Shown: piece by piece, positions 14,888 through 40,158 of the stretch
How the letters are laid out: every line of letters begins with the position of its first letter
Numbering within the stretch: position 1 is the first letter of the stretch
Origin: Candidatus Pacearchaeota archaeon
Lineage (GTDB): Archaea > Nanobdellota > Nanobdellia > Pacearchaeales > GW2011-AR1
Direction: 5' to 3'
Assembly: GCA_018304105.1 (NCBI GenBank)
Contig: JAGVWX010000019.1
Span: 1,411-65,410 of the forward strand
Length of the DNA stretch: 64,000 bases
Translations under genes and position numbers: made by a program
The notes under the pieces: model-generated
Seen by the model: the letters and a program-made list of their open reading frames with translations, nothing else
Databases searched by the model: none
What the model was told of the DNA's origin: nothing

Positions 14888-14904
14888 CGAAAGTGTTAAA
14901 TAAT
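14888..14904 (+). promoter_or_regulatory. consensus BRE/TATA promoter (cgaaagtgttaaataat)
   Basis: One mismatch to the 17-mer shared by 24010, 35046 and 39775. Exactly 20 nt to the ATG at 14924. Confidence 0.6.
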
Positions 14905-14923
14905 CTTGACGTCTTTTAGGAAT

Positions 14924-15127
14924 ATGACAGAAACAGCAAGCATAGAAAAAGTGTATATGGAACTTCTTGCGTTGAAGAAGGAGATAGATTTTATAAAAAC
15001 GCGCATTATGGATATAGAAGTTGTTATGACTTCTGAGGAAGAAGCTCAATTGGAAGACGCTCTTGAGCAGCACAAAAAGGGAAAAACAAAGAAACTGGAA
15101 GATTTGAAAAAAGAATTGGGTGATTAA
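14924..15127 (+). CDS. putative antitoxin partner of RelE
   Basis: 67 aa from the ATG at 14924; the listed ORF starts at an upstream TTG. Helical, acidic. Overlaps the RelE GTG start by 8 nt. Confidence 0.55.
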   Translation: MTETASIEKVYMELLALKKEIDFIKTRIMDIEVVMTSEEEAQLEDALEQHKKGKTKKLEDLKKELGD

Positions 15128-15383
15128 GGTGTTTGAAATTTTCTTCGGTTCTCAGCCAGAAAAATTTCTTAAAAAGGCTGAGAAAGAATTAAGGGAAAGA
15201 CTTTGGGATAAGCTAGATGAATTGAAATTAAATCCGTTTCCCTCTGATGTTGTTAGAGTTGTTGGCACGAAAGAAAAGGCGTTTCGGGTGAGAGTTGGAG
15301 GCTATAGGATACAATATTATGTTTTTCAGGATAAAAAGGAGATACTTGTTTTTGACATTGATAAAAGGGGAAGAGCGTATTAA
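15120..15383 (+). CDS. relE: RelE/ParE family toxin
   Basis: 87 aa. FRVRVGGYRIQYYVFQDKKEILVFDIDKRGRAY is the typical RelE C-terminal pattern. Confidence 0.8.
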   Translation: MIKVFEIFFGSQPEKFLKKAEKELRERLWDKLDELKLNPFPSDVVRVVGTKEKAFRVRVGGYRIQYYVFQDKKEILVFDIDKRGRAY

Positions 15384-15414
15384 TTGTTCTTTCACCCGCT
15401 AAGTTAACAAAAGA

Positions 15415-16278
15415 CTAGCAATCCAAAAGATTGACTTTCATGTTTATTACGTCGAGGGTTTGGCCGTCAATTGAGATTGTTGACTTGGCTTTGTCAAGTG
15501 TTATTACTGCAGATTCTTTGTATGTAACAGAGTGTTCCCTGATTTCCCCGGAGACGTAGAATTTTATTTTGTTCGGGCCGATTTGCTGTGCGCTGTTGAC
15601 GTTATAAGTGTAAGATATTCTGTTGCTGTTTTGGGCCGTGAAGGAACCCCTTCCCAAGGAAGCTTTTCCGGACGGAACATAAAGGTTCAAACGGTTGCGT
15701 TTGGTGTAAGTGTTTTCGCCGATATTTGTGGTGCCGCCGGTTGCTCTGACAGAACAGATTTGAACTGATTTAGGAGAGCGAACTATTATCTCCTTTTTTG
15801 AACTTTCGAGTTCTATGCCGGGTGTTGTTACAAGATACTTCGAAGTGTATTTGCCTGGAAGAAGCGAGACTGAATTAATTGAAACATTGTATTTTAAAGC
15901 GCCGGGAAGATATCCCTGATCGTAACCGTAACCATATCCATAACTATAACCGTATCCAAACTGATAATCGGAAGTTTCAACCTGCTCGATTTCGATTCCA
16001 GGGCAGGAATTAATTAAAGTAGCGTTTGGGAAAAACTCGCAGGAAATTTGCTGCGGGCCGTCAAGAATCAGAGTTAATTTTTGGATGTCGAGAAGTTCTC
16101 CTTCTTTAATTTCGACTGTAATTTGCAAGCCGAGCATCTCGCCCTGGGTGATATCATCGTCGAGGATTGTGAAATTCAAGAAGTATGCGCCGACAGGGCC
16201 AAGCATGAGCAAAGAGAAGATGATGAATAATGTTATGAAAATTGAAATAATCTTTTTATTTAAGAAGTAATTTTTCAT
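15415..16278 (-). CDS. secreted GY-loop surface protein, paralog 1 of 5
   Basis: Signal ending LMLGPVGA. Conserved module ...LTLILDGPQQISCEF...CPGIEI...FGYGYSYGYGYGYDQGY...GALKYNVSI...PGKYTS. Unique C-terminal domain. Confidence 0.75.
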   Translation of the reverse strand: MKNYFLNKKIISIFITLFIIFSLLMLGPVGAYFLNFTILDDDITQGEMLGLQITVEIKEGELLDIQKLTLILDGPQQISCEFFPNATLINSCPGIEIEQVETSDYQFGYGYSYGYGYGYDQGYLPGALKYNVSINSVSLLPGKYTSKYLVTTPGIELESSKKEIIVRSPKSVQICSVRATGGTTNIGENTYTKRNRLNLYVPSGKASLGRGSFTAQNSNRISYTYNVNSAQQIGPNKIKFYVSGEIREHSVTYKESAVITLDKAKSTISIDGQTLDVINMKVNLLDC

Positions 16279-16527
16279 AATTGAAATAATACATTCTTAT
16301 ATATAAATGTATTTCACTTTAAAGAAGTAGTAAAAGTTTAAAAGTTGTTCTTTCTTATTGCCGATTTTTTGTTATTTTTGGGTAATGATTTTTGATGAGT
16401 TTGACTATACGAATTCTCGGTTAAAATAGCTTCAATTGTTATTGCTCACAAGAGACTAGGTCACTCGCTTCGCTCATGAGGCAGCCAGTTCGCTAATTAC
16501 TTTTGACTATTTTGTTGTGGGTAAGAT

Positions 16528-16664
16528 TATGCTCTGTCCGGAATAGGTTTTCTGATTGATTTTATGATTCCCACATATTTCGACTATCGTCGAGTCCCAC
16601 CCTCACCACCCCTCACCTCCGCCCCAAGATGCTAGTAAAATCAATAAACTCCGGACAGAGCATA
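16528..16664. repeat. MITE-like element with 15-bp perfect terminal inverted repeats
   Basis: tatgctctgtccgga (16528-16542) and tccggacagagcata (16650-16664). aagatta is present on both outer sides. The interior carries the C-rich box cccaccctcaccacccctcacctccgcccc. Confidence 0.7.
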
Positions 16665-16740
16665 AGATTAGATAATAATATATGATATTATGGTTTGGGC
16701 TTTATTAATTCTAGGGGCTGTTATTTATTGAGAGAGATAA

Positions 16741-22210: not shown

Positions 22211-22227
22211 AGAAAGGGTTAAATAAT
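22211..22227 (+). promoter_or_regulatory. consensus BRE/TATA promoter (agaaagggttaaataat)
   Basis: 16 of 17 identical to the shared 17-mer. 20 nt to the ATG at 22247. Confidence 0.6.
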
Positions 22228-22246: not shown

Positions 22247-22483
22247 ATGAAATCTTTTACGGCGATTATAAGAAAAGGAGAAAAGCAGTTTGTTGCTTTG
22301 TGCCCAGAAGTTGATGTTGTCAGCCAGGGATACACTATAGAGGAGGCAGTTGAAAACCTTAAGGAAGCTGTCGGGCTTTATTTGGAAGAAATGGGCGAAC
22401 CTGAACAATATGGCTCTCAAGATACTTTTGTAGTCAAATTTGAGGTGAAACCATTTGGCAAAGTTACCGAGGCTATCGGGTAA
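22247..22483 (+). CDS. hicB: HicB-like antitoxin (UPF0150 fold)
   Basis: 78 aa. FTAIIRKGEKQFVALCPEVDVVSQGYTIEEAVENLKEAVGLYLEE is the typical HicB N-terminal domain pattern. Confidence 0.75.
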   Translation: MKSFTAIIRKGEKQFVALCPEVDVVSQGYTIEEAVENLKEAVGLYLEEMGEPEQYGSQDTFVVKFEVKPFGKVTEAIG

Positions 22484-22682
22484 AGAAGTTATAAAAGCTT
22501 TGAAGAAAGCGGGATTTATTGAAGTGCGACAGCGAGGAAGTCATGTTATCATGATAAAACAAACAGCCAATGAAAAGATTCCCCTTGTTGTGCCGATGCA
22601 CAGAGAAATTGATACTGGGATGTTGTTGGAAATAATTAGACAATCAAAGATGAATCGTGATGAGTTCCTTGGTCTTCTTTAG
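22455..22682 (+). CDS. hicA: HicA-like toxin
   Basis: 75 aa from a TTG start. LSGKEVIKALKKAGFIEVRQRGSHVIM matches the HicA (YcfA) pattern. Overlaps hicB by 29 nt. Confidence 0.75.
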   Translation: MAKLPRLSGKEVIKALKKAGFIEVRQRGSHVIMIKQTANEKIPLVVPMHREIDTGMLLEIIRQSKMNRDEFLGLL

Positions 22683-22782
22683 TTAATTTGTTCTAATTCT
22701 AGTTAACTCCTGATTGGTTCTTGTGTAACTCTAAAATGGTAAAAAGCACAAGGTTTAAAAGGATTTAATAAGTTTGAGAAAT

Positions 22783-24009
22783 ATGATAGACGTAATGCAG
22801 AGTAGTGGTAAAAGGTTAAAGGTTATTGTCATGAGTCCGGCGTATAATGAAGCGGAGAACATAGCCAAGGTGATTAAAGGAGTGCCGAGAGAGATTCGTG
22901 GAGTTGGGGAAGTTAAGGTAATGGTGATTGACGACCATTCGAGCGATGGCACTGCTATGGTGGCAAAGAACGCAGGGGCAGATTATGTTTTCAGGCAGAA
23001 GCAGCGTTCAGGACTCGGAGCGACTTTTAAGAAAGGAATCGATATTGCTTTACGACTCGGAGCTGATATAATTGTGAATATTGATGGAGACGGACAGTTC
23101 AATTCGAAAGATATTCCGAAGCTTATTGCGCCGATTCTGGAAAATGAAGCTGATATGGTGACCTGCTCGAGATTCTTGCAGCCGGAAATGACTAAGAACA
23201 TGCCTTGGAGCAAGAGATGGGGGAATAAAAGATTTTCAAATTTAATAAGCAGAATAACTGGAGAGAAATTTTCTGATACGCAGTGCGGGTTTAGAGCTTA
23301 TTCGAGAGAGGCGGCTTTGAGGCTGAACCTGAAGGGGAAGTTCACTTACACGCAGGAAGTTTTCATAGATTTAGTTGAGAAAGGAATGAGAATAAAGGAA
23401 GTGCCGTGCGAGGTTCAGTATTTTGAAAACAGAAAGTCGGTAATTTCGAGCAAAAGTTTTACGGGACTTGTGAAAGGATATGGATTCAAGAGTTTGGGAA
23501 TAATCGCGAAGACGACAAGAGATACGCAGCCATTGACTTTCTTTGGGATGCCTGCATTGATGGTTTTTATTTTGGGATTTATTGGAGGAGCGTACTCTTT
23601 TGTTTATTGGCTTATTTACAGCGCGACGACGCCGATTAGAACTTTGTTTAACGTTTCTGTTTTTTTTATGATATTTGGAGTTGCGCTTGGGATTTTAGCG
23701 ATGGTTGCAGACATGCTGAAGACGATAAAAGGAACGCAGGATGAGCTTTTGTACAGGTTGAAGAGGAATGAAGTTGACCAGAGCCATGCGATGAAGACGC
23801 TGAACGGGCATGTTGAGAAAGTCAATGGAACGATGAAGAAGATTAATGGACATGTGAAAGAGATGAAGATGAACGGAAATGGAAGCGGACACGCGGACAA
23901 GAATGATAAAGAGAATGAAGTTGAGATGTTTGCGGAAGGAAAAGATGAAAAGAGTGTTGGATATTATGCGGGATTGAATGCCCATAAAAGACGAATGAAA
24001 GAGCGATGA
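22783..24009 (+). CDS. GT2 family glycosyltransferase (dolichyl-phosphate hexose synthase-like) with C-terminal TM and coiled tail
   Basis: VIVMSPAYNEAENI, VIDDHSSDGT and NIDGDGQF (DxD) motifs, two TM helices, charged tail. The ATG at 22783 is preferred over the listed TTG at 22774 because the TATA aggtttaaaagg lies ~22 nt upstream. Confidence 0.8.
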   Translation: MIDVMQSSGKRLKVIVMSPAYNEAENIAKVIKGVPREIRGVGEVKVMVIDDHSSDGTAMVAKNAGADYVFRQKQRSGLGATFKKGIDIALRLGADIIVNIDGDGQFNSKDIPKLIAPILENEADMVTCSRFLQPEMTKNMPWSKRWGNKRFSNLISRITGEKFSDTQCGFRAYSREAALRLNLKGKFTYTQEVFIDLVEKGMRIKEVPCEVQYFENRKSVISSKSFTGLVKGYGFKSLGIIAKTTRDTQPLTFFGMPALMVFILGFIGGAYSFVYWLIYSATTPIRTLFNVSVFFMIFGVALGILAMVADMLKTIKGTQDELLYRLKRNEVDQSHAMKTLNGHVEKVNGTMKKINGHVKEMKMNGNGSGHADKNDKENEVEMFAEGKDEKSVGYYAGLNAHKRRMKER

Positions 24010-24026
24010 CGAAAGGGTTAAATAAT
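24010..24026 (+). promoter_or_regulatory. consensus BRE/TATA promoter (cgaaagggttaaataat)
   Basis: Identical 17-mer at 35046 and 39775. 20 nt to the ATG at 24046. Starts immediately after the GT2 stop codon (24007-24009). Confidence 0.6.
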
Positions 24027-24045: not shown

Positions 24046-24252
24046 ATGGAATATAAAGAAATGAACTTGGCTGAGTTATATAAGAAATTAAGAATTATAG
24101 AACAGTCTATGGTGACGAAAAAAGAGCTGGACACGGCCTTGGAAAGTGTTATGGTTTTCTCAAATGAAGAGACTATGAAGCAGATTGAGGGGAGCGAAGA
24201 AGATATTAAGGCGGGAAGAGTAAGGAAGATTAATTCTGTTAGCGAGTTATGA
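24046..24252 (+). CDS. orphan antitoxin-like small protein
   Basis: 68-aa helical, acidic protein resembling 14924..15127 in composition and layout. Its stop overlaps an ATG (ATGA) that opens only a 9-codon ORF. Confidence 0.5.
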   Translation: MEYKEMNLAELYKKLRIIEQSMVTKKELDTALESVMVFSNEETMKQIEGSEEDIKAGRVRKINSVSEL

Positions 24253-24281
24253 TGGCTTATTACAAACCCGTCGCCATTTAG
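24252..24281 (+). pseudogene. possible remnant of a translationally coupled toxin gene
   Basis: ATGA overlap with the antitoxin stop, as in intact TA operons, but the ORF is only MAYYKPVAI followed by a stop. Confidence 0.3.
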
Positions 24282-25571: not shown

Positions 25572-25653
25572 TTGAATTATATAAACTTTGCGGATAACGC
25601 TGAATTGGAGGAATTGATATGAGTAAGAGAAAGCTGGTTGTGTTTGCTTCGAC
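25572..25653 (+). repeat. copy of the GT4 promoter plus first 35 nt of the GT4 gene
   Basis: ttgaattatataaa...gaattgatATGagtaagagaaagctggttgtgtttgcttcgac matches 29335-29417 with few mismatches, then diverges into a stop. Confidence 0.85.
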
Positions 25654-25707
25654 CATTTGAAAACCGCTAAAAATATAAACCACTAGCGACTTTAATCTTA
25701 AAAGAGA

Positions 25708-25923
25708 ATGGGAAAAATAGTTCCGAGAACTGCGAAGGACGTGGTAAAAATTCTTGAAAGATTCGGTTTTAAGTTTGTGAGCAGGGGCAGGCATGACAAA
25801 TATAGGAATGAAGAAAGGGGGATTAGTGTTCCTGTGCCCGTGAGCCACGGAGTTATTTCAAGAGGAGTAATTCAATCATTAATTAGACAAACGGGAATAG
25901 CAAGAGAAGAGTTTGAAGTTTAA
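25708..25923 (+). CDS. hicA: HicA-like toxin
   Basis: 71 aa. AKDVVKILERFGFKFVSRGRHDKY resembles the HicA pattern with GSH replaced by GRH. TATA aaaatataaac lies ~25 nt upstream. Confidence 0.65.
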   Translation: MGKIVPRTAKDVVKILERFGFKFVSRGRHDKYRNEERGISVPVPVSHGVISRGVIQSLIRQTGIAREEFEV

Positions 25924-28680: not shown

Positions 28681-28697
28681 GCGCGGCATTGATGAGT

Positions 28698-28749
28698 ATG
28701 AGTAAGAGAAAGCTGCTTGTGTTTGCTTCGACGTTTCCGAGATGGAAGA
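28698..28749 (+). repeat. copy of the first 52 nt of the GT4 gene
   Basis: atgagtaagagaaagctgcttgtgtttgcttcgacgtttccgagatggaaga is identical to 29383-29434. It then diverges and is fused to the start region of family X copy B. Confidence 0.85.
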
Positions 28750-29334: not shown

Positions 29335-29382
29335 TTGAATTATATAAATCTTTCGGGCAACGCCGAATTGGGGAAATAAGAT
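29335..29382 (+). promoter_or_regulatory. promoter of the GT4 gene (master copy of the duplicated module)
   Basis: TATA-like ttgaattatataaa about 35 nt upstream of the ATG at 29383. Same module at 25572 and 27109. Confidence 0.55.
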
Positions 29383-30597
29383 ATGAGTAAGAGAAAGCTG
29401 CTTGTGTTTGCTTCGACGTTTCCGAGATGGAAGAAGGATACGATTCCGCCTTTTGTTTATGAGTTGAGCAAGAGACTTGTAAAGGGATTTGATGTTACTG
29501 TTTTAGCTCCGAGTTTTCCTGGAGCGAAGGAAGAGGAAGTCATGGACGGAATGAAAGTCAAGAGATTTCATTACGGGCTTGGAAGATATGAAACGCTGGC
29601 GAGCAACGAGGGAATTTTGCCCGCGCTGAAGAAGAGCAAGTGGAATTATTTTAAGATTCCTTTCTTTTTGCTTGGGGAGTTTTTTGCGTTGAGGAAAGAG
29701 ATTAAGGAAAATAGGCCCGATATGATTCATGCGCATTGGATTATCCCTCAGGGTTTTGTTGCGGCGATTTGCAAGAAGTTTTATGGGACGAGGTTTGTGG
29801 TTACGACGCATGGCGGAGATATTTTTGGCTTGAGAGGATTTGTCTCTAGGATGAGCAAGAGATTCACATTGAGAAATGCGGACAAGATAACGGTTGTAAG
29901 CAATGCGATAAAGAAAGAGATTTTGACTACGCTGAATCCGAAGCTGAAAATAGATGTGGTTTCTATGGGAGTTGACAGCAAGAAGTTCAATCCGAGGCAG
30001 AGAGACGACTCCATAAAGAAGAAGTACAAGATTGGCGAGGAGTTTTTGCTTTTTGTCGGGAGACTTGCGGAGAAGAAAGGAGTTAAGTATTTGCTTGAGG
30101 CGATGCCGGATGTTTTGAAGAAATTTCCGAAAGCAAAACTTTTAATTGTGGGCAGTGGTCCTTTGGAGAAAGAGCTAAAGGAGATTCACAAGAATTTGAA
30201 ACTTAAAGACAGCGTGGTTTTTACAGGCGCGATAGCAAATGCAGAACTTCCGAAGTATTATGCAACAGCAGATATTTTTGTTGGGCCTTCAATTGAAGCG
30301 AGAGGAGGGGATAAGGAAGGGTTAGGCCTGACTTTCGTTGAAGCTGGAATGTCTGGAGCATTAGTTATTGCAACCGATTTGGAAGCTATAGCAGATGCTA
30401 TTCAAGATGGCAAGACTGGGTTTATTGTTAAGCAGAAAAATTCTAAAGAGATTGCCAAGAAGATTATTTCTTTATTGGGTTCTAAAGACAAGATGGGCAA
30501 AATGCAGAAAACAGCGAGGGCAGAGTTGGTAAAGAAGTTTGACTGGGATGTTGTGAGCAAGAGATACGATGAAATTCTTGGAGGGGTGGGGAGATGA
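29383..30597 (+). CDS. GT4 family glycosyltransferase
   Basis: 404 aa. GT-B pattern with GGD, GRLAEKKG and the EGLGLTFVEAGMSGALVIATD (E-x7-E region). Confidence 0.85.
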   Translation: MSKRKLLVFASTFPRWKKDTIPPFVYELSKRLVKGFDVTVLAPSFPGAKEEEVMDGMKVKRFHYGLGRYETLASNEGILPALKKSKWNYFKIPFFLLGEFFALRKEIKENRPDMIHAHWIIPQGFVAAICKKFYGTRFVVTTHGGDIFGLRGFVSRMSKRFTLRNADKITVVSNAIKKEILTTLNPKLKIDVVSMGVDSKKFNPRQRDDSIKKKYKIGEEFLLFVGRLAEKKGVKYLLEAMPDVLKKFPKAKLLIVGSGPLEKELKEIHKNLKLKDSVVFTGAIANAELPKYYATADIFVGPSIEARGGDKEGLGLTFVEAGMSGALVIATDLEAIADAIQDGKTGFIVKQKNSKEIAKKIISLLGSKDKMGKMQKTARAELVKKFDWDVVSKRYDEILGGVGR

Positions 30598-31560: not shown

Positions 31561-33129
31561 ATGAAATACAAGGAGATATTCTTTTGGATAACAGTTATTT
31601 TGTTTGCGTTTCTTATTTCGATTATTACAAGACAAACTAATGCAACACCTTCTCAGCTTTTAGATGCAAATCAAAATTTATTTTTCTCTAAAAATATTCT
31701 TGTATCGGGAGATTTGAGTTATGTAAATCCTTACAATGAAAAATATTCTCAAATTTTTGGGTTTAGAACAACATTTATCGATGGTGGTGGGTTAAACTTA
31801 CCCGCAACACATTTGGGGTATATTTACGTTTTGTCTATTTTTAGGCTTGCTCTATTAGATGAAATTTTTTTCATCACGTTTTTTCTGTTGGTACTCTCTG
31901 CAGCATATGTAAAGAAGCTAGCTACTTTGTTATTTGATGCGAAAACAAGTTATATTGCTGTTATAGGATTTTTATTTTTCTCTTCAGTAATCTATTGGTC
32001 AACAGCTTATATCAATGATGTTGCGGCATTATTTTTCTTTATCGTTGCAATGTATTATTTTTTCAGATATTTAGAAAGTGAAAGACAGATTGAAGGAATT
32101 CTGTTTGCTCTTTTTTATTTTGTAGCTGTCTTCATTCGGTTTTCCTATTTACCTGTTCTGGTGTCATTTGTAATTGCGTTTGTCTTTGTAAGAAAACCAA
32201 ATAAGAAAGCACTATTTGTCGGATTATTTTTGTTTGTTAATATTCTTTTGTTGTTTATCTTTAATTTTTTTAATTACAATTTTTTTCTAGGCCCCGTCAG
32301 TAATCAAGTTTTAAGAAGACTCTCTCCAAATATAATCAGTAAAGATTCACTAGAAGGTGTTTCTTTAGTTTCTAATTTTTTTGTGTTTTCGAATTCTGAA
32401 GTTTTTATTAACAATATAAAGAATTATCTGCTAGGTTTGCAGATAGTATTTTTCTTTGTGCCAAGTCTTATAACGGTTTTTAAGGGACTACAGAAGAAGA
32501 ATAGAAATTTGCTTCCCTTTTCTTTGTTCTTTGTTACAACTGTTTTAATTTTGGCCTCTTTATATCTTGGAAAAGAATGGTCTGGATATAGTTCTACTTT
32601 TTTAATAAATTCTATGTACACCAGATATCTTCTACCGATGTATCTATTATTCATTATTGCCGGGAGTTATTCTTTAAGAAAGTATCTCTCTAGGTTCAGT
32701 AAAAGTTTTGCAGTAGTCTTTTTAGTTGGATTTATAATTATGTTTATGGCCATTAACTTTCAATTAGTTTCTCCTCAGTTAAATTATAACTCGGGTCTTG
32801 ATTTTGAGAGGAAATTTAGTATTGATGTAATTAATAATACAAATGGGGATTCGGTTATTTTCACGACCTATTTTGATAAATACTTATTTCCTACTAGGCA
32901 AACGGCAATATATACTACTTTCGAGAAAGACACAAGAAAAGAAAATACAGCTAATTTAATTAAAGATTTGTTAGCCGATGGTAAGGAAGTTTATTTTATT
33001 GATGAAAATTATTTAAAAGATTACGATGAGTTTACTTTGAAGGATGATTATTTTCCATATTTTACAAAAGCCGGTTTAGAACCAAAGAATGTTTCATTTA
33101 GGCTCTACAAAATAGAACTTACAAAATGA
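31561..33129 (+). CDS. polytopic membrane protein, possible GT-C type glycosyltransferase
   Basis: More than 10 TM helices followed by a soluble C-terminal domain, within a glycosyltransferase operon. Function is inferred from context only. The ATG at 31561 is preferred to the listed TTG. Confidence 0.5.
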   Translation: MKYKEIFFWITVILFAFLISIITRQTNATPSQLLDANQNLFFSKNILVSGDLSYVNPYNEKYSQIFGFRTTFIDGGGLNLPATHLGYIYVLSIFRLALLDEIFFITFFLLVLSAAYVKKLATLLFDAKTSYIAVIGFLFFSSVIYWSTAYINDVAALFFFIVAMYYFFRYLESERQIEGILFALFYFVAVFIRFSYLPVLVSFVIAFVFVRKPNKKALFVGLFLFVNILLLFIFNFFNYNFFLGPVSNQVLRRLSPNIISKDSLEGVSLVSNFFVFSNSEVFINNIKNYLLGLQIVFFFVPSLITVFKGLQKKNRNLLPFSLFFVTTVLILASLYLGKEWSGYSSTFLINSMYTRYLLPMYLLFIIAGSYSLRKYLSRFSKSFAVVFLVGFIIMFMAINFQLVSPQLNYNSGLDFERKFSIDVINNTNGDSVIFTTYFDKYLFPTRQTAIYTTFEKDTRKENTANLIKDLLADGKEVYFIDENYLKDYDEFTLKDDYFPYFTKAGLEPKNVSFRLYKIELTK

Positions 33130-33827
33130 ACAATAAAATTACTACGGCAATCGACGGAAGACTAAAGAAATCAATCGTCTTATTGGGAGATTTGACTGGC
33201 AAGAAAATATTAGACGTTGGGTGTAAGGCAGCGTGGCTGGAAAACTATCTCAACGACCACAAGACAAAACTTAAGGAAATGCATTCGTTTGACGTAGAGA
33301 ATTATGATTTTCCTAAACTTGGAAAGAAGTTTCATTTTGCTATTGATTCAGTATTGGATATGAAGAGATATTTCGGAAAAGATTTTGATGTGGCTACATT
33401 CTTTGAAGTGATAGAACATATACCGAAGAATACAGAGTTACAAGCTTTGACGAACATAAGGAAAACTTTGAAGGTTGGTGGGAAGCTTTATTTGTCGACT
33501 CCAAACAAAAGTCTTTTTTCAAATGCTCTTGATCCAGCTTGGTGGCTTATAGGCCATAGACATTACTCCGAGAAAGAACTGAGGAAGATGTTGGAAAAAG
33601 TTGGTTTTAAGATAGTTAAGTCAGAAGTCCGAGGAGGATTTACGGAGTTGATCGCTATGGACACTTACTATTTATTCAAGAATGTGTTTAGAACGAAAAG
33701 GTTTGGTTCTAACTTGTTTAAGGATAAAAGAAATAGTGATTATTTAGATAAGAACAAGAAAGGATTTGCTACTCTGTTTATCGTTGCAGAAAAGACTAAG
33801 GAAAAGAAAAATAAAACTCTCCCCTAA
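33126..33827 (+). CDS. class I SAM-dependent methyltransferase
   Basis: ILDVGCKAAW (motif I-like), FDVATFFEVIEHIP, GGKLYLSTPN. The last four codons and the stop are contributed by repeat element R1. Confidence 0.65.
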   Translation: MNNKITTAIDGRLKKSIVLLGDLTGKKILDVGCKAAWLENYLNDHKTKLKEMHSFDVENYDFPKLGKKFHFAIDSVLDMKRYFGKDFDVATFFEVIEHIPKNTELQALTNIRKTLKVGGKLYLSTPNKSLFSNALDPAWWLIGHRHYSEKELRKMLEKVGFKIVKSEVRGGFTELIAMDTYYLFKNVFRTKRFGSNLFKDKRNSDYLDKNKKGFATLFIVAEKTKEKKNKTLP

Positions 33828-33910
33828 ACCCTTAATCTCAACAGCAGTTCTCATCTCAAATGGGACGGACGCCAATTTAGTTCTGGTTAGCTCTGGTTAG
33901 TTCTGCTGGC
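33814..33910. repeat. cassette-boundary element, copy R1
   Basis: aaactctcccctaaacccttaatctcaacagcagttctcatctcaaatgggacggacgccaatttagttctggttagctctggttagttctgctggc. Near-identical copies at 36018, 36889 and 37692. Confidence 0.9.
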
Positions 33911-34060
33911 TGTGTTGTGATTTGCTTGGTTCTGCTTGGTTCTGCTTGGTTCTGCTTGGTTCTGCTTGTCTTGCTAATTGCCTTACTTGCTTTGTCGTGA
34001 TTTGCTGACGATGTGAACGACATGTGAATGACTTGTGAGTGAGGAGAAGAACGAAGTGAA
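33881..34060. repeat. phased 10/11-bp degenerate tandem array upstream of a promoter
   Basis: ttctggttag ctctggttag ttctgctggc ... tttgcttggt (tctgcttggt x3) tctgcttgtc ... then gatgtgaacga catgtgaatga cttgtgagtga ... agtgaacga. The top strand is almost free of A over 33881-33970. Confidence 0.85.
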
Positions 34061-34076
34061 CGAAAAACATAAATAG
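34061..34076 (+). promoter_or_regulatory. BRE/TATA promoter variant (cgaaaaacataaatag)
   Basis: Identical 16-mer at 38958. 20 nt to the ATG at 34097. Confidence 0.55.
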
Positions 34077-34096: not shown

Positions 34097-34438
34097 ATGG
34101 AAAAACGGAAGTTTGTCTTCATGTATGATGATTTCTCAGATAGGCTGCTAATATCATGCAAAGATAAAAATGAGACCATTTCTGGGAGTGCGAGGGTTCT
34201 GAATCTTGTTCTTACATTTACAACCAATAATAAAGTTGTTGGCATAGAGCTAAAAAATGCCTCTAAGTATCTGGAATCACTAAGAATAAACCCTAAGATA
34301 TTGAATAATCTAAGCAACGCAGAGATTGTTTTTCAGCAGCAAAGAGATGGGTATCTGATTTATTTTATTCTTTATGCAGGAGAAGAAGTGGAAAGAGTCC
34401 CCTATAACGTAATATCTAGAGAACCTATCCTGAATTAA
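34097..34438 (+). CDS. DUF2283-like small protein
   Basis: 113 aa. FVFMYDDFSDRLLISCKD...VVGIELKNASKYL. Paralog of 39811..40158. Confidence 0.65.
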   Translation: MEKRKFVFMYDDFSDRLLISCKDKNETISGSARVLNLVLTFTTNNKVVGIELKNASKYLESLRINPKILNNLSNAEIVFQQQRDGYLIYFILYAGEEVERVPYNVISREPILN

Positions 34439-34770
34439 CTTTTCTTGAGTCTTTTATCCAGACTTCTTTTATACTCTACTGCATGGATGATTAAAACTCC
34501 CTTGTCTTTAGGGCAGGTGGCAATTGAGAAATAGGTGCCGTTGCTTAAATTGTAAAATAATTCATAGCCTATGTCTCCATATTTTAATGTGTCTTTTTCT
34601 ATTTCAGTCACTTTATCAAATTGGGGGAATACTTCAAGCACTTTTTTATGTTCAATTCCCTTCTCAGCAATGCTTAATCTGTAATAGCTTGTAAAAATTA
34701 ATTTCTTTCCTTTGATTTTCTCTGTGATTATCTTCTGGATTTCCTCTTTTTCTGAGATGATTTCAGTCAT
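34435..34770 (-). CDS. convergent partner of the DUF2283-like gene (DUF4258-like, putative toxin)
   Basis: 111 aa. YYRLSIAEKGIEHKKVLEV loosely resembles the HA-x-x-R-x-x-ERGI region of DUF4258. TTAA stop-stop overlap with 34097..34438. Own TATA (tttataac) ~24 nt upstream. Confidence 0.5.
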   Translation of the reverse strand: MTEIISEKEEIQKIITEKIKGKKLIFTSYYRLSIAEKGIEHKKVLEVFPQFDKVTEIEKDTLKYGDIGYELFYNLSNGTYFSIATCPKDKGVLIIHAVEYKRSLDKRLKKS

Positions 34771-34854: not shown

Positions 34855-35045
34855 AAACTCTCACTTAAATCCATCATCTCTTCTTCCCAATAGGACTCAC
34901 CATGCTTCGAGGCTGTGAGTCTTGATTATTGCCCGCCCCTAAATCCATCATCTCCCCTATACTTCAATAGGACGCCTGTTTTATTTTGCTGACGAATTGC
35001 TGACGAATTGCTGACGATGTGAGGGGTTTGTGAATGAGAGGGGAA
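34855..35045. repeat. cassette-boundary element, diverged copy R6, with covarying hairpin and 3 x 11-bp repeats
   Basis: aaactctcacttaaatccatcatctc... Hairpin gactcac (34894-34900) / gtgagtc (34915-34921) followed by ttgattatt. ttgctgacgaa x3 at 34986-35018. Confidence 0.75.
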
Positions 35046-35062
35046 CGAAAGGGTTAAATAAT
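35046..35062 (+). promoter_or_regulatory. consensus BRE/TATA promoter (cgaaagggttaaataat)
   Basis: Identical 17-mer at 24010 and 39775. 20 nt to the ATG at 35083. Confidence 0.6.
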
Positions 35063-35082: not shown

Positions 35083-35208
35083 ATGACAAAGAAGAAATTA
35101 ACGGGGAAGAATGAGAGAAAGGTTGAAGAGTTGAAGGAAATTATTCTTTCTATTAGAAACGATCCTGTGGCTATGAAACAAGTTAAAAAGTTAGCTGTTG
35201 CCTGTTAA
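35083..35208 (+). CDS. 41-aa small ORF downstream of the consensus promoter (not in the supplied ORF track)
   Basis: MTKKKLTGKNERKVEELKEIILSIRNDPVAMKQVKKLAVAC. Sits at the exact promoter-ATG spacing seen for seven other genes. Converges on, and overlaps by 18 nt, the PIN gene. Confidence 0.4.
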   Translation: MTKKKLTGKNERKVEELKEIILSIRNDPVAMKQVKKLAVAC

Positions 35209-35664
35209 GAAACTTCTTTTTAGATCCTTATATGTGTAAAAGGTTGGAGTTCTTATCTTTTTTCTTAGGTTAATTATCTTATAAGCATTTATTGCCCTTG
35301 GATGTTTTAATGTTTTTTCATCGTCAGAGAAGATTAAATCAAAGTTATACAAACTGGCGCAGGCAACAATTTTGAAGTCATTTCCGATGTTTGCCCAGTT
35401 CTTCACGCCATTGTTTGCTTTGTATTCTGAAAAATACTGCTTTGCCAGTTCTTTAATTTGTTTGTTCTCTTGAATCATTGTCCCCTTAACTAACTTATCA
35501 TATACTCTTAGGATACTTGGAGCTTTCCTTAGCTCATCTCTGATTAGCCTGAAATTATGAATTACGAATCGATTATCTGGAGCAATTTTTTCAACGAGGT
35601 TTATACCTTCTGCATCTTCAATTATTTTCCCATAGATATTTGTGTCTAATAATACATTCGCCAT
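35191..35664 (-). CDS. vapC: PIN domain protein (VapC-like toxin)
   Basis: 157 aa. N-terminal VLLDTNIY with the first PIN aspartate, and a later FDLIFSDDEK acidic cluster. Own TATA atatatttaaac ~28 nt upstream. Confidence 0.65.
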   Translation of the reverse strand: MANVLLDTNIYGKIIEDAEGINLVEKIAPDNRFVIHNFRLIRDELRKAPSILRVYDKLVKGTMIQENKQIKELAKQYFSEYKANNGVKNWANIGNDFKIVACASLYNFDLIFSDDEKTLKHPRAINAYKIINLRKKIRTPTFYTYKDLKRSFLTGNS

Positions 35665-35929: not shown

Positions 35930-36017
35930 TGCTTGCTAACAGCATCATCGCATATAAATTTTTGGTTATCTTAGTTTTGCTTGGATATTACGATGTTGAA
36001 GTTGTTGCCCCTTAAGG

Positions 36018-36116
36018 AAACTCTCCCCTAAACCCTTAATCTCAACAGCAGTTCTCATCTCAAATGGGACGGACGCCAATTTAGTTCTGGTTAGCTCTGG
36101 TTAGTTCTGCTGGCTG
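36018..36116. repeat. cassette-boundary element, copy R2
   Basis: Near-identical to 33814-33910. Confidence 0.9.
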
Positions 36117-36167
36117 CGTTTGGCTTGTGAACGAAACAATTAAAAGCATTTGAAAGCAAACTATTGT

Positions 36168-36383
36168 ATGGCTGCTAGTGTATCTCCTTCGGAAATGAAT
36201 TATGAGTTTTATGTAGAAAGTGATATGAGCAAATACATCGGAGAATGGGTTGCGATTTTTGAGGGGAAAGTAATTGCTCACGGAAAAAATATAAAATTGG
36301 TTGCTGAAGAAGCAACAGCCTTAGCGAAAGGAAGAAAAGTCTTGTTTGCTCGCGTGCCAGATAAAGCAGCGATGATATTTTAG
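36168..36383 (+). CDS. DUF5678-like small protein
   Basis: 71 aa from the ATG at 36168 (TATA caattaaaag ~25 nt upstream). YIGEWVAIFEGKVIAHGKNIKLVAEEA...ARVP matches my recollection of DUF5678. Confidence 0.6.
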   Translation: MAASVSPSEMNYEFYVESDMSKYIGEWVAIFEGKVIAHGKNIKLVAEEATALAKGRKVLFARVPDKAAMIF

Positions 36384-36384: not shown

Positions 36385-36813
36385 ATGACTATCACGTTTA
36401 AGTATAAGAGAATAAGACGACCTGACAATTCAGAGATTAAGACGCCTTCTATTTTAGTAACTTTTGGTGGAGCCGGAGCAAAATACGACTTTATGGTCCT
36501 TGTTGATTCTGGTGCAGATGTTTCGGTTATTCCGAAATCCATAGCGGAATTACTTGGACTGAACTTGGCGGGAGAGGAAGAAGAGGCGTCTGGAATAGGC
36601 GGTGTTGTCCCTGCGGTAGAAAGCAGTGTGCAGATAGAAATACATAAAGGGCATGAACATTATTCTTTTGTCCTTCCTGTTAAAGTTATCCTTGACGACA
36701 GCGATTTTCCAATTCTTCTGGGAAGGGAAGGATTTTTTGATAAATTTGTTGTAACATTCAATCAGTCAGAAGAGAAATTAATTTTAAAGAGAGTTCAAGA
36801 GGGCAGTTATTAA
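36385..36813 (+). CDS. retropepsin-like (clan AA) aspartic protease
   Basis: 142 aa. FMVLVDSGADVSVIP contains the D-S/T-G-A catalytic motif. ILLGREGFF is a flap/dimer-type C-terminal motif. Starts 1 nt after the DUF5678-like stop. Confidence 0.75.
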   Translation: MTITFKYKRIRRPDNSEIKTPSILVTFGGAGAKYDFMVLVDSGADVSVIPKSIAELLGLNLAGEEEEASGIGGVVPAVESSVQIEIHKGHEHYSFVLPVKVILDDSDFPILLGREGFFDKFVVTFNQSEEKLILKRVQEGSY

Positions 36814-36888
36814 GCCGATTATCTGTTGAAATTCTTTGGCAGTTTTCTCTTGAGTTTATTCTTCTTTGAGGTCTCGGAACAGAAAATG

Positions 36889-37079
36889 AAACTCTCCCCT
36901 AAACCCTTAATCTCAACAGCAGTTCTCATCTCAAATGGGACGGACGCCAATTTAGCTCTGGTTAGTTTTGCTGGTCTTGCTCGCTTTGCTTGTTAATTGC
37001 CTTACTTGCTTTGTCGTGCTTGTTTTGCTGGCTGTGTTGTGATTTGCTGACGATGTGAGGGGTTTGTGAACGGCTATGG
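36889..37079. repeat. cassette-boundary element, copy R3, plus phased array
   Basis: Core near-identical to R1, followed by ctctggttagttttgctggtcttgctcgctttgcttg...gatttgctgacgatgtgaggggtttgtgaacgg. Confidence 0.9.
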
Positions 37080-37096
37080 GAAAGAGTTTAAATAAT
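37080..37096 (+). promoter_or_regulatory. BRE/TATA promoter variant (gaaagagtttaaataat)
   Basis: 19 nt to the ATG at 37116. Confidence 0.55.
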
Positions 37097-37115: not shown

Positions 37116-37334
37116 ATGGAGAGAATTGTAATAAACAATGAAGTCTTGGCAGGGAAGCCCATAGTGAAGGGAACAAGAATATCTGTAGAATTTATATTGG
37201 AAATGCTGTCTTCAGGAATGAGTATCGAGAGGATTTTGGAAGAATACCCTCATCTGAAGAGGGAAGATATATTGGCCGCTTTGGAATATGCAGCAAGGAT
37301 TTTTAAAAGAGAAGAATTTTACAGACTTCAATAA
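37116..37334 (+). CDS. DUF433-like antitoxin candidate
   Basis: 72 aa. LAGKPIVKGTRISVEFILEMLSSGMSIERILEEYPHLKREDILAALEYA is the characteristic DUF433 pattern. Confidence 0.75.
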   Translation: MERIVINNEVLAGKPIVKGTRISVEFILEMLSSGMSIERILEEYPHLKREDILAALEYAARIFKREEFYRLQ

Positions 37335-37335
37335 A

Positions 37336-37692
37336 ATGAAATTCCTTACTGATGAAAATGTGGCAGTTTCCGTCGTTGGATTCTTAAGGCAAGAAGGATT
37401 TGATGTGAAAGACGTAAAGGAAGAGTTGTTGCATGGCTCTCCAGATAGAGAAATTTTCGAGCTTGCAAAGAAAGAAAATAGAGTTGTTCTAACGCATGAC
37501 AAAGATTTCTTGGAGATTGTAAAGAATTACACTTCTGATTTTGAGGGGATTATTTTAATAAAGTGCAAAAAACAAAGTCCAGAAAACGTTATCGCAACTT
37601 TAAGCAAACTCATAGACTCTGAGGCAATTAAAAAAATTAAAAATAGTCTGTTTATTTTGAATGAAGAAGAATTAGTAATAATTAGAAAATGA
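37336..37692 (+). CDS. DUF5615-like (PIN-like/Mut7-C type) toxin candidate
   Basis: 118 aa from the ATG at 37336 (MKFLTDENV...LTHDKDF). Typical partner of DUF433. The listed upstream start overlaps the DUF433 gene and is rejected. Confidence 0.7.
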   Translation: MKFLTDENVAVSVVGFLRQEGFDVKDVKEELLHGSPDREIFELAKKENRVVLTHDKDFLEIVKNYTSDFEGIILIKCKKQSPENVIATLSKLIDSEAIKKIKNSLFILNEEELVIIRK

Positions 37693-37790
37693 AACTCTCC
37701 CCTAAACAAATCATCTCAACAGCAGTTCTTATCTCAAATGGGACGGACGCCAATTTAGTTCTGGTTAGTTCTGGTTAGTTCTGCTGGCTG
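37692..37790. repeat. cassette-boundary element, copy R4
   Basis: aaactctcccctaaacaaatcatctcaacagcagttcttatctcaaatgggacggacgccaatttagttctggttagttctggttagttctgctggctg. Begins at the stop codon of the preceding gene. Confidence 0.9.
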
Positions 37791-37927
37791 CGTTTGGATG
37801 GTACGTTTACAGACGCTGATTAACGCTTTGTTGAAAATCTGTCTTTTCTTGGCTGTTTGCTACTCACCAGCCACATTTAAAATCCTTGCCACCAAAATCT
37901 TTTAAACTTCAATAAACTGAACAAATT

Positions 37928-38839
37928 ATGGAAAAAGAGAAAGATGAAGTTGAAGACAGGAAAGAAGGTGACAGGGAAAATGACGAGGAAGACGGCACCC
38001 ATATTGCCATTTTTAATGGGAAACGCATAAGAAAGCGAATGGTGAATGGTGAATGGTTCTTTTCTATCGTAGACATTGTCGGAGTCTTAACTGAAAGTTC
38101 TCGCCCTAGAAAATATTGGTCTGATTTAAAATCTAAGTTAATAGACGAAGGTTCAGAGTTGTCCGCAAAAATCGGACAACTGAAATTTAAGTCTAGCGAT
38201 GAAAAAGATTATCTAACAGATTGTGCCAATACAGAAACTATTTTCAGAATAATTCAATCAATTCCTTCTAAAAAAGCAGAACCTTTCAAAAGATGGCTGG
38301 CAAGAGTTGGTTATGAAAGAATTCAAGAAATAGAGAATCCCGAGTTGGCACAAGAAAGAATGAAAAAATTGTATGAACTAAAAGGATATTCTAAAGACTG
38401 GATTGAGAAAAGATTGAGGGGAATTGCAGTTAGGCAGGAGCTTACAGATGAATGGAAAAATAGGGGGGTTAAAAAAGAAATAGAATTTGCTATTTTGACC
38501 AATGAAATAAGCAAGGCAACATTTGACAAGACTGTTGAAGAATACAGGAAATTCAAAAAGCTAAAACGCGAAAACCTGAGAGACCATATGGACGACTTGG
38601 AACTTATTTTTACTATGCTGGGGGAAGCAGCAACAACCAGAATTACTAAAACAAAAGATGTTCAAGGTTTTCCGGAAAATATAATCGCCGCAAAACAAGG
38701 CGGGGAAGTCGCAGGTAATGCACGAAGAGAATTAGAAGAAAAGACGGGAGAGAGTGTTTTATTAGAAGATAATTACTTAGACATTCCGGAAAAGCTAAAG
38801 AAAAAGAGGAAAAAGCTAATAGAAAACTTAAATGGTTGA
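37928..38839 (+). CDS. Bro-N domain protein, DNA-damage-inducible protein D (DinD)-like
   Basis: 303 aa. GEWFFSIVDIVGVLTES..PRKYWSDLKSKL, PSKKAEPFKRWLARVGYERIQE, GYSKDWIEKRL, NLRDHM. This pattern matches Bro-N/DinD-like proteins. Confidence 0.7.
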   Translation: MEKEKDEVEDRKEGDRENDEEDGTHIAIFNGKRIRKRMVNGEWFFSIVDIVGVLTESSRPRKYWSDLKSKLIDEGSELSAKIGQLKFKSSDEKDYLTDCANTETIFRIIQSIPSKKAEPFKRWLARVGYERIQEIENPELAQERMKKLYELKGYSKDWIEKRLRGIAVRQELTDEWKNRGVKKEIEFAILTNEISKATFDKTVEEYRKFKKLKRENLRDHMDDLELIFTMLGEAATTRITKTKDVQGFPENIIAAKQGGEVAGNARRELEEKTGESVLLEDNYLDIPEKLKKKRKKLIENLNG

Positions 38840-38957
38840 AACTGGCTTTAGTAATCAACAAAGCCGGATTTGCTGAAATGGGATGCATTTGCGACGCTGG
38901 AACTGCAACACTAGAACTTGCGATATAACGATGTGAATGACTTATGAACGAAGGGAA

Positions 38958-38973
38958 CGAAAAACATAAATAG
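38958..38973 (+). promoter_or_regulatory. BRE/TATA promoter variant (cgaaaaacataaatag)
   Basis: Identical to 34061-34076. 20 nt to the ATG at 38994. Preceded by gatgtgaatgacttatgaacgaaggg repeats. Confidence 0.55.
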
Positions 38974-38993
38974 TCTAAATTGCTGAGTAAAAG

Positions 38994-39251
38994 ATGGAAA
39001 AGAAAATTGAATTGGATATTGTAATTTATCCAGAGGGCAAGGGAAAAGATAAAGTTTACAGCATAAGCTCTGTTCAGGTACCTAATGTTGTAACGCAAGG
39101 AGATACAATCGAAGAGGCAATAAGCAGGTTAAGAGAAGCTTTAGAATTATACTTTGAGTCTGTTCCCTATGAAAAAGATAATTTGATAAAAATAACGGAA
39201 GATGAACAAGAGGGCTGTAATAACCCGATGATTAGCAGGATCTTTCTTTAA
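38994..39251 (+). CDS. hicB: HicB-like antitoxin
   Basis: 85 aa. VVTQGDTIEEAISRLREALELYFE. The C-terminus NPMISRIFL is paralogous to 25920..26183. Confidence 0.7.
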   Translation: MEKKIELDIVIYPEGKGKDKVYSISSVQVPNVVTQGDTIEEAISRLREALELYFESVPYEKDNLIKITEDEQEGCNNPMISRIFL

Positions 39252-39496
39252 TATCTTAGTAATTCATTTAACTCTTTTAAAATTTCTTCGTTTATTCCAG
39301 CTTCCCTGCAATTGCGGATTAAATTTTGTCTAACTATATTTGATGGTTGTTTTACATTGACTAAAATGATTGGTCGTTTCAAAGGAGGATTTCGATTGAG
39401 CTTAATATGATCGCCCCTCATGTGTTCAACATAGAATCCCTGTTTCTCCAAAATAGAAATCACTTTACTTATTATCGGTTTGAAATTATACTTCAT
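39248..39496 (-). CDS. hicA: HicA-like toxin, convergent with hicB
   Basis: 82 aa from the ATG at 39496 (TATA agtttataat ~22 nt upstream). VISILEKQGFYVEHMRGDHIKL resembles the HicA pattern. TTAA stop-stop overlap at 39248-39251. Confidence 0.65.
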   Translation of the reverse strand: MKYNFKPIISKVISILEKQGFYVEHMRGDHIKLNRNPPLKRPIILVNVKQPSNIVRQNLIRNCREAGINEEILKELNELLRY

Positions 39497-39559
39497 CTTT
39501 TTATTACTCAGAGGACGATTATAAACTTTTTCTATAATTTTTTGTAGTTGCAACCCTCG

Positions 39560-39706
39560 TATTTTTTATTCCCGCATTAAATCGTCAATCATCTCAGCAC
39601 TCGTCCTCATCTCCTAAGCTCTTCACTTCAACAGCAGTTATTATCCCAAATTGGACGCCAATTTAATTCTGGTTAGCTCTGGTTAGTTCTGCTTGGCTAT
39701 TACGGA
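39560..39706. repeat. cassette-boundary element, diverged copy R5
   Basis: ...cttcaacagcagttattatcccaaattggacgccaatttaattctggttagctctggttagttctgcttggc. Contains the perfect palindrome aaattgg-acg-ccaattt. Confidence 0.8.
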
Positions 39707-39774
39707 TAGATACAATCATCGAGGGATTTTGCTCATTTCATTTGCGTGTGAGAAAACGAGGAGAACGGCGAGGG

Positions 39775-39791
39775 CGAAAGGGTTAAATAAT
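39775..39791 (+). promoter_or_regulatory. consensus BRE/TATA promoter (cgaaagggttaaataat)
   Basis: Identical 17-mer at 24010 and 35046. 20 nt to the ATG at 39811. Confidence 0.6.
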
Positions 39792-39810
39792 CTTCATCAT
39801 CAATATAATC

Positions 39811-40158
39811 ATGAGTAGCAGGTTTTATTATGATGCTGATACGGATGATGTTATCATCTCGAATAAGCTGGACGATGAAAAAGTGAAAAAGAACTATATT
39901 TTTGATGATTTTGTTATTAGTGTTGCTGGAAGCGGGAAGATTGTTGGATTAGAGATAAGGGATGTTTCCAAGTTTCTTAAGGATTCTGGTTTAGACCTGG
40001 GCTTTTTCAAGGATATAAAAGAAGTTGAGTTAGTAATTGTTCCTAAAAGAGATTCTATCGGAATCTATATTTATCTGACAATCTTTTGCAAAGAGGGGAC
40101 TTTTGAGAGAAGGATTCCCATTACTCACCTACCTGCAGAAATTGTAGCCAGCAATTAA
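39811..40158 (+). CDS. DUF2283-like small protein
   Basis: 115 aa. FYYDADTDDVIISNK...IVGLEIRDVSKFL. Paralog of 34097..34438. Confidence 0.65.
   Translation: MSSRFYYDADTDDVIISNKLDDEKVKKNYIFDDFVISVAGSGKIVGLEIRDVSKFLKDSGLDLGFFKDIKEVELVIVPKRDSIGIYIYLTIFCKEGTFERRIPITHLPAEIVASN

Follow-up and report, generated by a model that had tools for sequence, protein, structure and literature searches.

The stretch of DNA analysed here (the window) comprises 64,000 nt of a Candidatus Pacearchaeota archaeon genome (assembly GCA_018304105.1), namely positions 1411–65410 of contig C17 (JAGVWX010000019.1). This genome, labelled G000, consists of 1.05 Mb in 23 contigs, is 89% complete and has a G + C content of 39%. 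Between 13 and 42 kb, the window carries a mix of glycosyltransferase genes, paralogous secreted-protein genes and many small genes of the toxin–antitoxin (TA) type, and several of these small genes are preceded by near-identical core promoters, represented by the 17-mer CGAAAGGGTTAAATAAT (hereafter P1) and by CGAAAAACATAAATAG (P2). To consider how such promoters came to stand before unrelated genes, the window was compared with the genomes of same-genus relatives, G009 (Candidatus Pacearchaeota archaeon UBA73), G019 (Nanoarchaeota archaeon MAG), G003, G004 and G010, and with the metagenome contigs L073 and L095, the strain-level contig L086 and a sequence of a relative, L026; L133 denotes positions 9000–19000 of contig C12 of G004, and L134 belongs to contig C2 of G003.

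Promoters, cassettes and repeats of the island

The promoters of the first genes all lie on the plus strand. P1 is exact at 24010–24026, 35046–35062 and 39775–39791 and has one mismatch at 14888–14904 (CGAAAGTGTTAAATAAT) and 22211–22227 (AGAAAGGGTTAAATAAT), whereas only 0.02 matches with up to two mismatches are expected in shuffled sequence. P2 is exact at 34061–34076 and 38958–38973, and a further variant, GAAAGAGTTTAAATAAT, occupies positions 37080–37096. Pattern searches thus reproduced all eight sites of the initial annotation, and the ATG codons listed there (14924, 22247, 24046, 34097, 35083, 37116, 38994 and 39811) were also correct, each of them opening an open reading frame (ORF). 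The single deviation from a fixed distance had been placed at 37080 but belongs to 35046, where the spacer is one base longer than in the rest; in the other seven of these eight sites, TTAAATA begins 28 nt before the ATG. A ninth, weaker promoter of the same kind, CGAAACAATTAAAAGCA, was found at 36132–36148, in the same register ahead of a DUF5678 gene starting at 36168. The TATA box occupies positions −29 to −22 at all nine sites (−30 to −23 at 35046), and the transcription factor B recognition element (BRE), CGAAA(G/A) at −36 to −31, agrees with the BRE profile of the genome itself (A at −34 to −32).

This layout is generic. By a crude gene call (1213 genes), 86 genes have a strict TATA match at −29 relative to the first ATG, and matches at any other position number nine at most; when one mismatch is allowed, the genes with TATA at −29 to −22 rise to at least 236 (about 20%). 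The promoter profile of G000 from −36 to −22 reads [C/A][G/A]AAA-NN-TTTA[A/T]A[T/A]A, a T-rich stretch near −10 is also visible, and the genome-wide start profile contains no signal of a Shine–Dalgarno or other ribosome-binding motif. In archaea, a TATA box centred about 26 nt before the start site sets the beginning of the transcript; therefore, with the TATA box centred about 26 nt upstream of the ATG, transcripts should begin at the ATG itself. The many genes with TATA at exactly −29 to −22 indicate that leaderless promoters, whose mRNAs are also dominant in Haloferax and Sulfolobus, are the norm in G000. On this sequence evidence, the nine sites are ordinary archaeal BRE/TATA core promoters, predicted to start leaderless mRNAs, and the genome-wide spike at −29 bears out the initial annotation in this respect. 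The fixed spacing is real too, but it is a property of the genome and not a trait of these genes.

The sequence within this layout, in contrast, is not generic. P1 departs from the profile at G−29, a base found there in 3% of other promoters, and its copies agree also at the free positions −36, −35, −31, −30, −21 and −20. According to a weight matrix trained on 228 other leaderless promoters of G000, about 0.0002 exact copies of P1 are expected among the 236 promoters, and three are present. When 402 leaderless starts of G000 were scored with this matrix, P1 formed the largest cluster at up to one mismatch (four members plus the offset copy at 35046), the other clusters being consensus-like and having three members at most. 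P1 scores 12.4 bits (67th percentile) and P2 less than 9 bits, so that neither is the strongest generic promoter; the sites at 14888 (scored at −36 to −20), 22211, 36132 and 37080 reach 11.5, 12.5, 4.5 and 13.2 bits, respectively. In the whole genome, P1 with up to one mismatch and a GGG or GTG core is confined to the 25 kb between 14.9 and 39.8 kb of the window (hereafter the island). The possibility, raised at the outset, that a large proportion of the genes have the 17-mer at this distance is thus borne out for the spacing and not for the 17-mer. In a scan of one genome per prokaryotic species, only members of this genus had the 16-mer at this spacing ahead of TA-type genes, the matches in other DPANN archaea preceding ordinary genes and those in bacteria being at chance level; scanning metagenomes for the 16-mer with this spacing gave the same picture.

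The eight unrelated families that were originally thought to lie downstream of the promoters reduce to about five, comprising two distant HicB proteins, two distant DUF2283-like proteins, two marginally similar RelB-like coiled-coil antitoxins, a DUF433 protein and the product of a 41-aa ORF. The promoter type does cut across families, with P1 ahead of HicB-78 and the 115-aa DUF2283-like protein and P2 ahead of HicB-85 and the 113-aa DUF2283-like protein. The cassettes, whose first genes are all on the plus strand, begin with genes for a 67-aa RelB-like antitoxin (14924–15127) and a ParE/RelE toxin (15120–15383; PF05016, E = 1.2e-6), followed by HicB (22247–22483) and HicA (22455–22682; PF07927, E = 1.9e-18), whose ortholog in G009 has the promoter CGAAAGGGTTAAATAAC, and by an orphan gene for a 68-aa antitoxin (24046–24252). 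Further on are the 113-aa DUF2283-like gene (34097–34438) with a convergent minus-strand gene for a 111-aa protein (34435–34770), the 41-aa ORF (35083–35208) with a convergent gene for a weakly PIN-like 157-aa protein (35191–35664, minus strand), to which a pair in G004 is similar (46 aa plus convergent PIN), and the DUF5678 gene (36168–36383) with a plus-strand gene for a retropepsin-like aspartyl protease (36385–36813). The last three cassettes consist of the DUF433 gene (37116–37334) with a DUF5615/PIN-like gene on the same strand (37288–37692), the HicB-like gene (38994–39251) with a convergent HicA-like gene (39248–39553, minus strand) whose likely ATG start, giving a product of 82 aa, has a promoter of its own, and the 115-aa DUF2283-like gene (39811–40158) with a truncated convergent ORF of 65 aa (40155–40352, minus strand), a partner that has 162 aa in G019. 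Pfam bears out these assignments in broad terms. RelB-like plus ParE, HicB plus HicA, DUF433 plus DUF5615/PIN-like and, in a strain variant, the 68-aa antitoxin plus ParE are clear TA pairs. The assignment is weaker for the HicB-like gene with its convergent HicA-like partner, both of which fall under the Pfam cut-off, and weak for the 41-aa ORF and for the partners of the 113-aa and 115-aa genes. Pfam searches of the cassette genes found no transposase, integrase or other mobility domains, the results being TA-type matches, no match or weak sub-threshold matches.

Several convergent pairs share a peculiar geometry, their stop codons overlapping in the palindrome TTAA (34435–34438, 39248–39251 and 40155–40158), a layout that is unusual for a TA pair. 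Such pairs recur in three relatives (G009, L026 at 1980–1983 and L133 at 2252–2255), and at least two of the minus-strand partners have a leaderless promoter of their own (the gene starting at 34770 and the HicA-like gene). The metagenome contig L073 is identical to window positions 37922–40369 except for a 42-nt in-frame deletion (39327–39368) inside the HicA-like gene.

The part of the island from 33.8 to 40.4 kb is an array punctuated by five plus-strand copies of a repeat of about 105 nt, designated R, which are 83–100% identical; for four of the copies, the identity is at least 84% over 103 nt or more. The first copy (33808–33924) starts in the last 20 nt of a methyltransferase gene (33126–33827); the others are at 36012–36128, 36883–36999, 37686–37802, upstream of a Bro-N domain gene (37928–38839), and 39610–39693, the last being diverged (79–83%). 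R is present only in G000, and its left edge matches the junction between the methyltransferase and the next gene of G009 at 16 of 17 nt. A coding function for R was considered and rejected: only about 14 minus-strand codons are common to the copies before they become unrelated, and a plus-strand mini-ORF has no ATG in one copy. The intervals between R and the promoters contain runs of 10–11-nt units, TTGGTTCTGC (five times) and GAATTGCTGAC (three times), at 33916–33966 and 34986–35018, and the number of units varies between copies of the module.

A separate duplication involves a glycosyltransferase gene (protein start MSKRKLLVFAST...), the promoter and initial codons of which are present three times in the window (25618–25670, 28697–28749 and 29382–29434). 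One copy is a dead stub beside a HicA gene (25708–25923), and a similar stub is found in G009 directly 5′ of the HicBA promoter.

Shared promoter blocks and the positions of cassettes in relatives

The resemblance between promoters extends beyond their cores. The P2 sites at 34061 and 38958 have about 85 nt in common, from GATGTGAATGACTT through the spacer to codon 3, although the proteins that follow are unrelated, and 35046 and 37080 share the 27–30 nt just upstream. G009 is syntenic with the window at 70–77% nucleotide identity, and its DUF433 and DUF2283-like orthologs both have (C/G)GAAAGGGTTAAATAAC, i.e. the 17-mer minus its first base, followed by an identical 20-nt spacer. The promoters of these two genes differ between the species: the DUF2283-like gene has P2 in G000 and P1 in G009, and the DUF433 gene has the P1 variant in G000 and P1 in G009. 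The AAC form of P1, together with a spacer of similar sequence (AAAAGKTRTCT), is found before the DUF433 and DUF2283-like genes of G009, a RelB-like gene of G019 and an MNT nucleotidyltransferase gene on the metagenome contig L095. Identical spacers before unrelated genes argue for copying rather than selection on a binding site, and shared spacers cannot arise by convergence.

Cassette positions also differ between relatives. In G000 the HicBA cassette precedes the GT2 glycosyltransferase gene, whereas in G009 it is found about 1.6 kb beyond the 3′ side of that gene, with homology beginning at base 2 of the 17-mer. The RelBE cassette follows the HisRS gene in G000 and a fragment of a gene of the LPG-synthase family in G019, homology beginning 5 nt before the 17-mer. 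The 115-aa cassette, which precedes the LPG-synthase gene in G000, follows it in G019, with homology from 22 nt before P1. In two of these three cassettes (HicBA and RelBE), homology between species therefore begins within 0–5 nt of the BRE. In G009, cassettes are downstream of the LPG-synthase gene, whereas those of G000 are upstream of it or after the HisRS and GT2 genes. The proposal of a portable promoter unit, made in the initial annotation, is in line with these edges near the BRE, with the promoter-plus-spacer blocks before unrelated genes and with the variants before orthologs. Recombination may also occur inside a gene: the near-identical strain contig L086 (1487–1971, compared with 24046–24260 of the window) has the same P1 and first 40 antitoxin codons, but the remaining 28 residues at the C-terminus differ and a ParE/RelE toxin gene is adjacent, and the window has no such toxin gene, so that the orphan 68-aa antitoxin appears to be the product of such an event.

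In the relatives, the insertion hotspot associated with P1 is the 3′ end of the gene of the LPG-synthase family (LPG_synthase_TM, PF03706). In G000 this membrane protein is encoded at 40576–41727 (plus strand), with no cassette after the gene. In G019, the purine-rich stretch is part of the ORF and codes for a Lys/Arg/Glu/Gly tail, the stop codon falling in the TAA of P1; the last 144 nt of the gene recur in diverged form (72% identity) after the 115-aa cassette, and this duplicate, with the tail and CGAAAGGATTAAATAAC, heads the RelB-like cassette. In G009, an insert with a HEPN–MNT pair lies between the copies of a 75-nt direct repeat (85% identity), which consists of gene end plus tail and extends to the CGAA of the BRE. 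The clearest array of its kind seen is that of G004 (L133, 1071–6353), in which four partial 3′-end copies of 180–225 nt (about residues 300–372) separate four cassettes: 46 aa plus convergent PIN, 110 aa plus convergent 179 aa, PBECR2 plus DUF2283, and nucleotidyltransferase (NTP_transf_2) plus a 177-aa gene. Three of these four contain PIN, PBECR2 plus DUF2283 or NTP_transf_2 domains, and the fourth is without a Pfam match. The block AAGATAATTATTTAAACCTCA stands after the resident gene end and again after the first copy, before unrelated genes. G003 and G010 have one extra LPG-synthase 3′ fragment each. The fragment stranded in G003 (L134, 4486–4683) is 74% identical to the G000 protein, the full-length gene resident in G003 only about 38%, which points to an allelic replacement that took in most of the gene and, with it, about 3 kb of HTH/HEPN-type cassettes. 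In total, the 3′-end duplication is found in 5 of the 10 genomes of the genus that carry the gene. No duplicate of the 3′ end was found outside the genus: among 201 genomes sampled across the order, the gene was matched in 13 including G000, and it is single-copy in G000 and in the 12 others.

On the G000 side, the counterpart of this junction is a stretch of about 22 purine-rich nucleotides directly upstream of P1 at 39775, homologous to the junction of LPG-synthase tail and P1 in G019. The purine-rich sequence before 22211 and before 24010 belongs for the most part to the coding 3′ end of the preceding gene, as is also seen in the relatives, and the promoter at 24010 abuts the TGA stop codon of the GT2 gene (22774–24009). 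The HisRS stop codon lies 23 nt upstream of the 17-mer at 14888. The idea that the G000 modules are themselves decayed LPG-synthase 3′ ends was abandoned; pairwise z scores reached 6.8, but an nhmmer profile detected none of them. Likewise, a viral origin was rejected, the pattern having no matches in viral contigs. A second lineage-specific shared promoter, AATTATTTAAAC (G004, G010 and G015), precedes a DUF433 gene and two of the G004 cassettes but also ordinary genes and is suggestive only.

Possible origins of the shared promoters

We consider it fairly probable that the promoter module has been copied by recombination of cassettes, in a manner close to insertion with long target duplication, and that a shared regulator is not the cause. 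P1 and P2 would then derive from a single promoter module, as paralogous copies marking the 5′ edge of small TA-type cassettes that bring their own promoters. These cassettes would have been inserted, relocated and exchanged within a hypervariable region, the module spreading by recombination and not by independent selection. With each insertion, the promoter-bearing junction would be duplicated, this junction being, in the relatives, the LPG-synthase-family 3′ end with its Lys/Arg/Glu-rich tail and P1 and, in the window, a repeated unit of R and the promoter-proximal module. By an alternative route, the junction might be copied over short tracts between neighbouring cassettes. Selection would keep only in-register joins with an expressed first gene; because transcription would start at the ATG, only joins with 19–20-nt spacing could express that gene, which would account for the exact register. 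We infer the recombination, whether homology-driven or by insertion with long target duplication, from the shared blocks, the displaced cassettes and the direct repeats of host gene ends described above.

Several points weigh against this reading. No target duplication was found in G000 around the three outlying P1 cassettes (14888, 22211 and 24010). An nhmmer profile of 16 LPG-synthase 3′ ends matched only the gene itself, in the window as in the genome, so that the link of P1 in G000 to the LPG-synthase junction comes down to about 22 nt (39753–39774) and to the relatives. Repeat boundaries vary among genomes (75, 144 and about 180–225 nt) and define no single precise mechanism. The promoters of orthologs are generally conserved between G000 and G009, which makes the conservation of P1 at HicB uninformative. 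The three exact 17-mers have unrelated flanks on both sides, and selection on all 17 positions is possible. Finally, the activity of these promoters is itself a prediction.

The most serious competitor of recombination is an island-limited regulon, in which one trans-acting factor (a repressor or a variant TFB or TBP) would bind the BRE/TATA region and keep G−31, G−30, G−29, A−21 and T−20 under selection. It would explain three exact and two near-exact 17-mers with non-alignable flanks and the retention of P1 before orthologs in G009 and G019 whose spacers and upstream sequences have diverged, but promoters of orthologs in general are equally conserved. The CGAAA BRE is found in seven of the nine island promoters, compared with nine others among the 402 scored elsewhere (14 of the 402 have a BRE of this type, nine of these outside the island); the nine outside promoters, however, drive genes for unrelated membrane or secreted proteins, and a genome-wide CGAAA-BRE class tied to TA genes was therefore rejected. 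Phased 10–11-nt repeats upstream of the promoters in the 33.8–39 kb array might be taken for binding sites, and the GTGAAYGA repeats had initially been proposed as such. These and the TTGCTGACGA repeats are concentrated in that array, within paralogous copies of one intergenic module; the upstream repeats are thus paralogous copies or coding 3′ ends and not independent sites, nor are they independent evidence for a factor. The identical spacers before unrelated genes indicate copying, and no candidate factor was identified.

A regulon of TA genes also fares badly outside the island. A genome-wide search of the kind proposed initially found the 17-mer only in the island; the TA genes elsewhere are on other promoters. 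More than 25 other TA genes of G000 do not have P1; those outside the island include 13 PIN genes over the Pfam cut-off and one weak PIN match, eight DUF2283, three ParE and one HicA. Where promoters could be assigned to them, these are generic, with T at −29 and scores of 9–17 bits, and at least five of the genes have a gene-specific palindrome in the spacer, such as TTCCTACtttgGGTAGGAA. The VapBC-type modules at C6:~26500, C21:~2950 and C3:~13950 have perfect or near-perfect palindromes in the 19-nt spacer between TATA and ATG (e.g. TTCCTACtttgGGTAGGAA and CCCACACATATGTGTGGG), which are likely antitoxin auto-operators overlapping the transcription start. A regulon is therefore not supported, and we regard even one limited to the island as an improbable source of the shared promoters.

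An integron-like, site-specific system, in which a dedicated recombinase would act on R or P1 to capture cassettes, is less probable still. Five R copies do separate unrelated cassettes, most of them led by a plus-strand gene, the content and position of cassettes vary between species, and integrons are known in Archaea (PMC9668308). However, neither strand of R folds better than shuffled sequence does (z +1.1 to +1.7), so that R has no attC-like hairpin, and no GTTRRRY/RYYYAAC pair was seen. No Rfam family was matched between 13 and 42 kb, the only tyrosine recombinase gene of the genome (PF00589) is on contig C22, outside the window, and the varying repeat boundaries leave no fixed core. We therefore rejected an attC reading of R.

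Convergence on the consensus of the genome as the best generic promoter, already disfavoured by the rarity of G−29, the excess of exact copies over expectation, the mid-range score of P1, its restriction to a single 25-kb region and the shared spacers, can hardly be upheld by the agreement of BRE and TATA with the generic consensus and register, by the consensus-like near-identical pairs elsewhere (17 pairs at up to one mismatch among the 236 promoters) or by the exact 16-mers at the same spacing before non-TA genes in other DPANN lineages.

Within the recombination scenario, a more specific proposal can be offered only tentatively and is, in our opinion, rather doubtful: integrase-free, homology-driven capture of cassettes in this genus, in which a resident gene end with its leaderless promoter would serve both as recombination repeat and as expression signal. 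The resident gene would be that of the LPG-synthase family in the relatives, and in G000 the methyltransferase junction, seen as R. If this were the case, each captured TA or defence cassette would automatically obtain a promoter 19–20 nt from its ATG, and host recombination with promoter-bearing target duplications would amount to a functional analogue of an integron. More generally, recombination of this kind would provide a route for supplying promoters to new accessory genes in leaderless archaea, where a promoter has to be placed to the single base. The 3′ end of one membrane-protein gene is identified as a genus-specific insertion hotspot. For annotation, identical promoters before unrelated genes in such genomes should not be taken for a regulon without further evidence.

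Comparison with known systems

The Vibrio superintegron combines VCR repeats with self-promoted TA cassettes. Like the sedentary chromosomal integrons and those of archaea (Ghaly et al., 2022; PMC9668308), the island is an array of small, unrelated, often TA-type cassettes with a conserved repeat between them and a content that varies among relatives. In contrast to integrons, it has neither an integron integrase nor a folded attC-like site, every cassette has its own promoter and many consist of convergent gene pairs.

As promoters, the sites are of a familiar type. They share with the BRE/TATA core promoters of archaeal leaderless mRNAs (reviewed in PMC7289017) the CGAAA-type BRE directly 5′ of an 8-nt TATA box and a TATA box centred some 26 nt upstream of the transcription start, here predicted to be the A of the ATG. 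While this architecture is normal, near-identity over 17 nt, including free positions, across the unrelated genes of one island is unusual.

Movement of promoters independently of coding sequences, with orthologs carrying different variants, has a parallel in promoter switching, i.e. the horizontal regulatory transfer of Oren et al. (2014, PNAS), as cited in PMC5890482, which in that account concerns bacterial core genes exchanged between strains. By comparison with that account, exchange in the island would take place among neighbouring cassettes within a genome, and the join would have to be base-precise because the mRNAs are leaderless.

A close parallel is insertion with long target duplication, which Furuta et al. 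(2010, NAR; PMC2853133) reported for restriction-modification genes of bacteria. As in that system, small selfish units without a mobility gene appear to be inserted at or into the 3′ end of a host gene, and they are flanked by direct repeats of more than 30 bp and of variable length, the target being single-copy in other genomes. Such repeats with a single-copy target are found in the relatives G009, G019 and G004, and in G000 only R fits this description. Archaea were in the starting pool of the repeat-flank screen in PMC2853133, and no archaeal cases were retained. The present system differs in that the cargo is of the TA type, the host is an archaeon and serial insertions form arrays; moreover, the duplicated target includes a promoter that would then drive the next cassette, a pattern seen in G000 only as R. 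If the proposed origin is correct, insertion with long target duplication, so far a feature of bacterial restriction-modification genes, would extend to TA cassettes in DPANN archaea.

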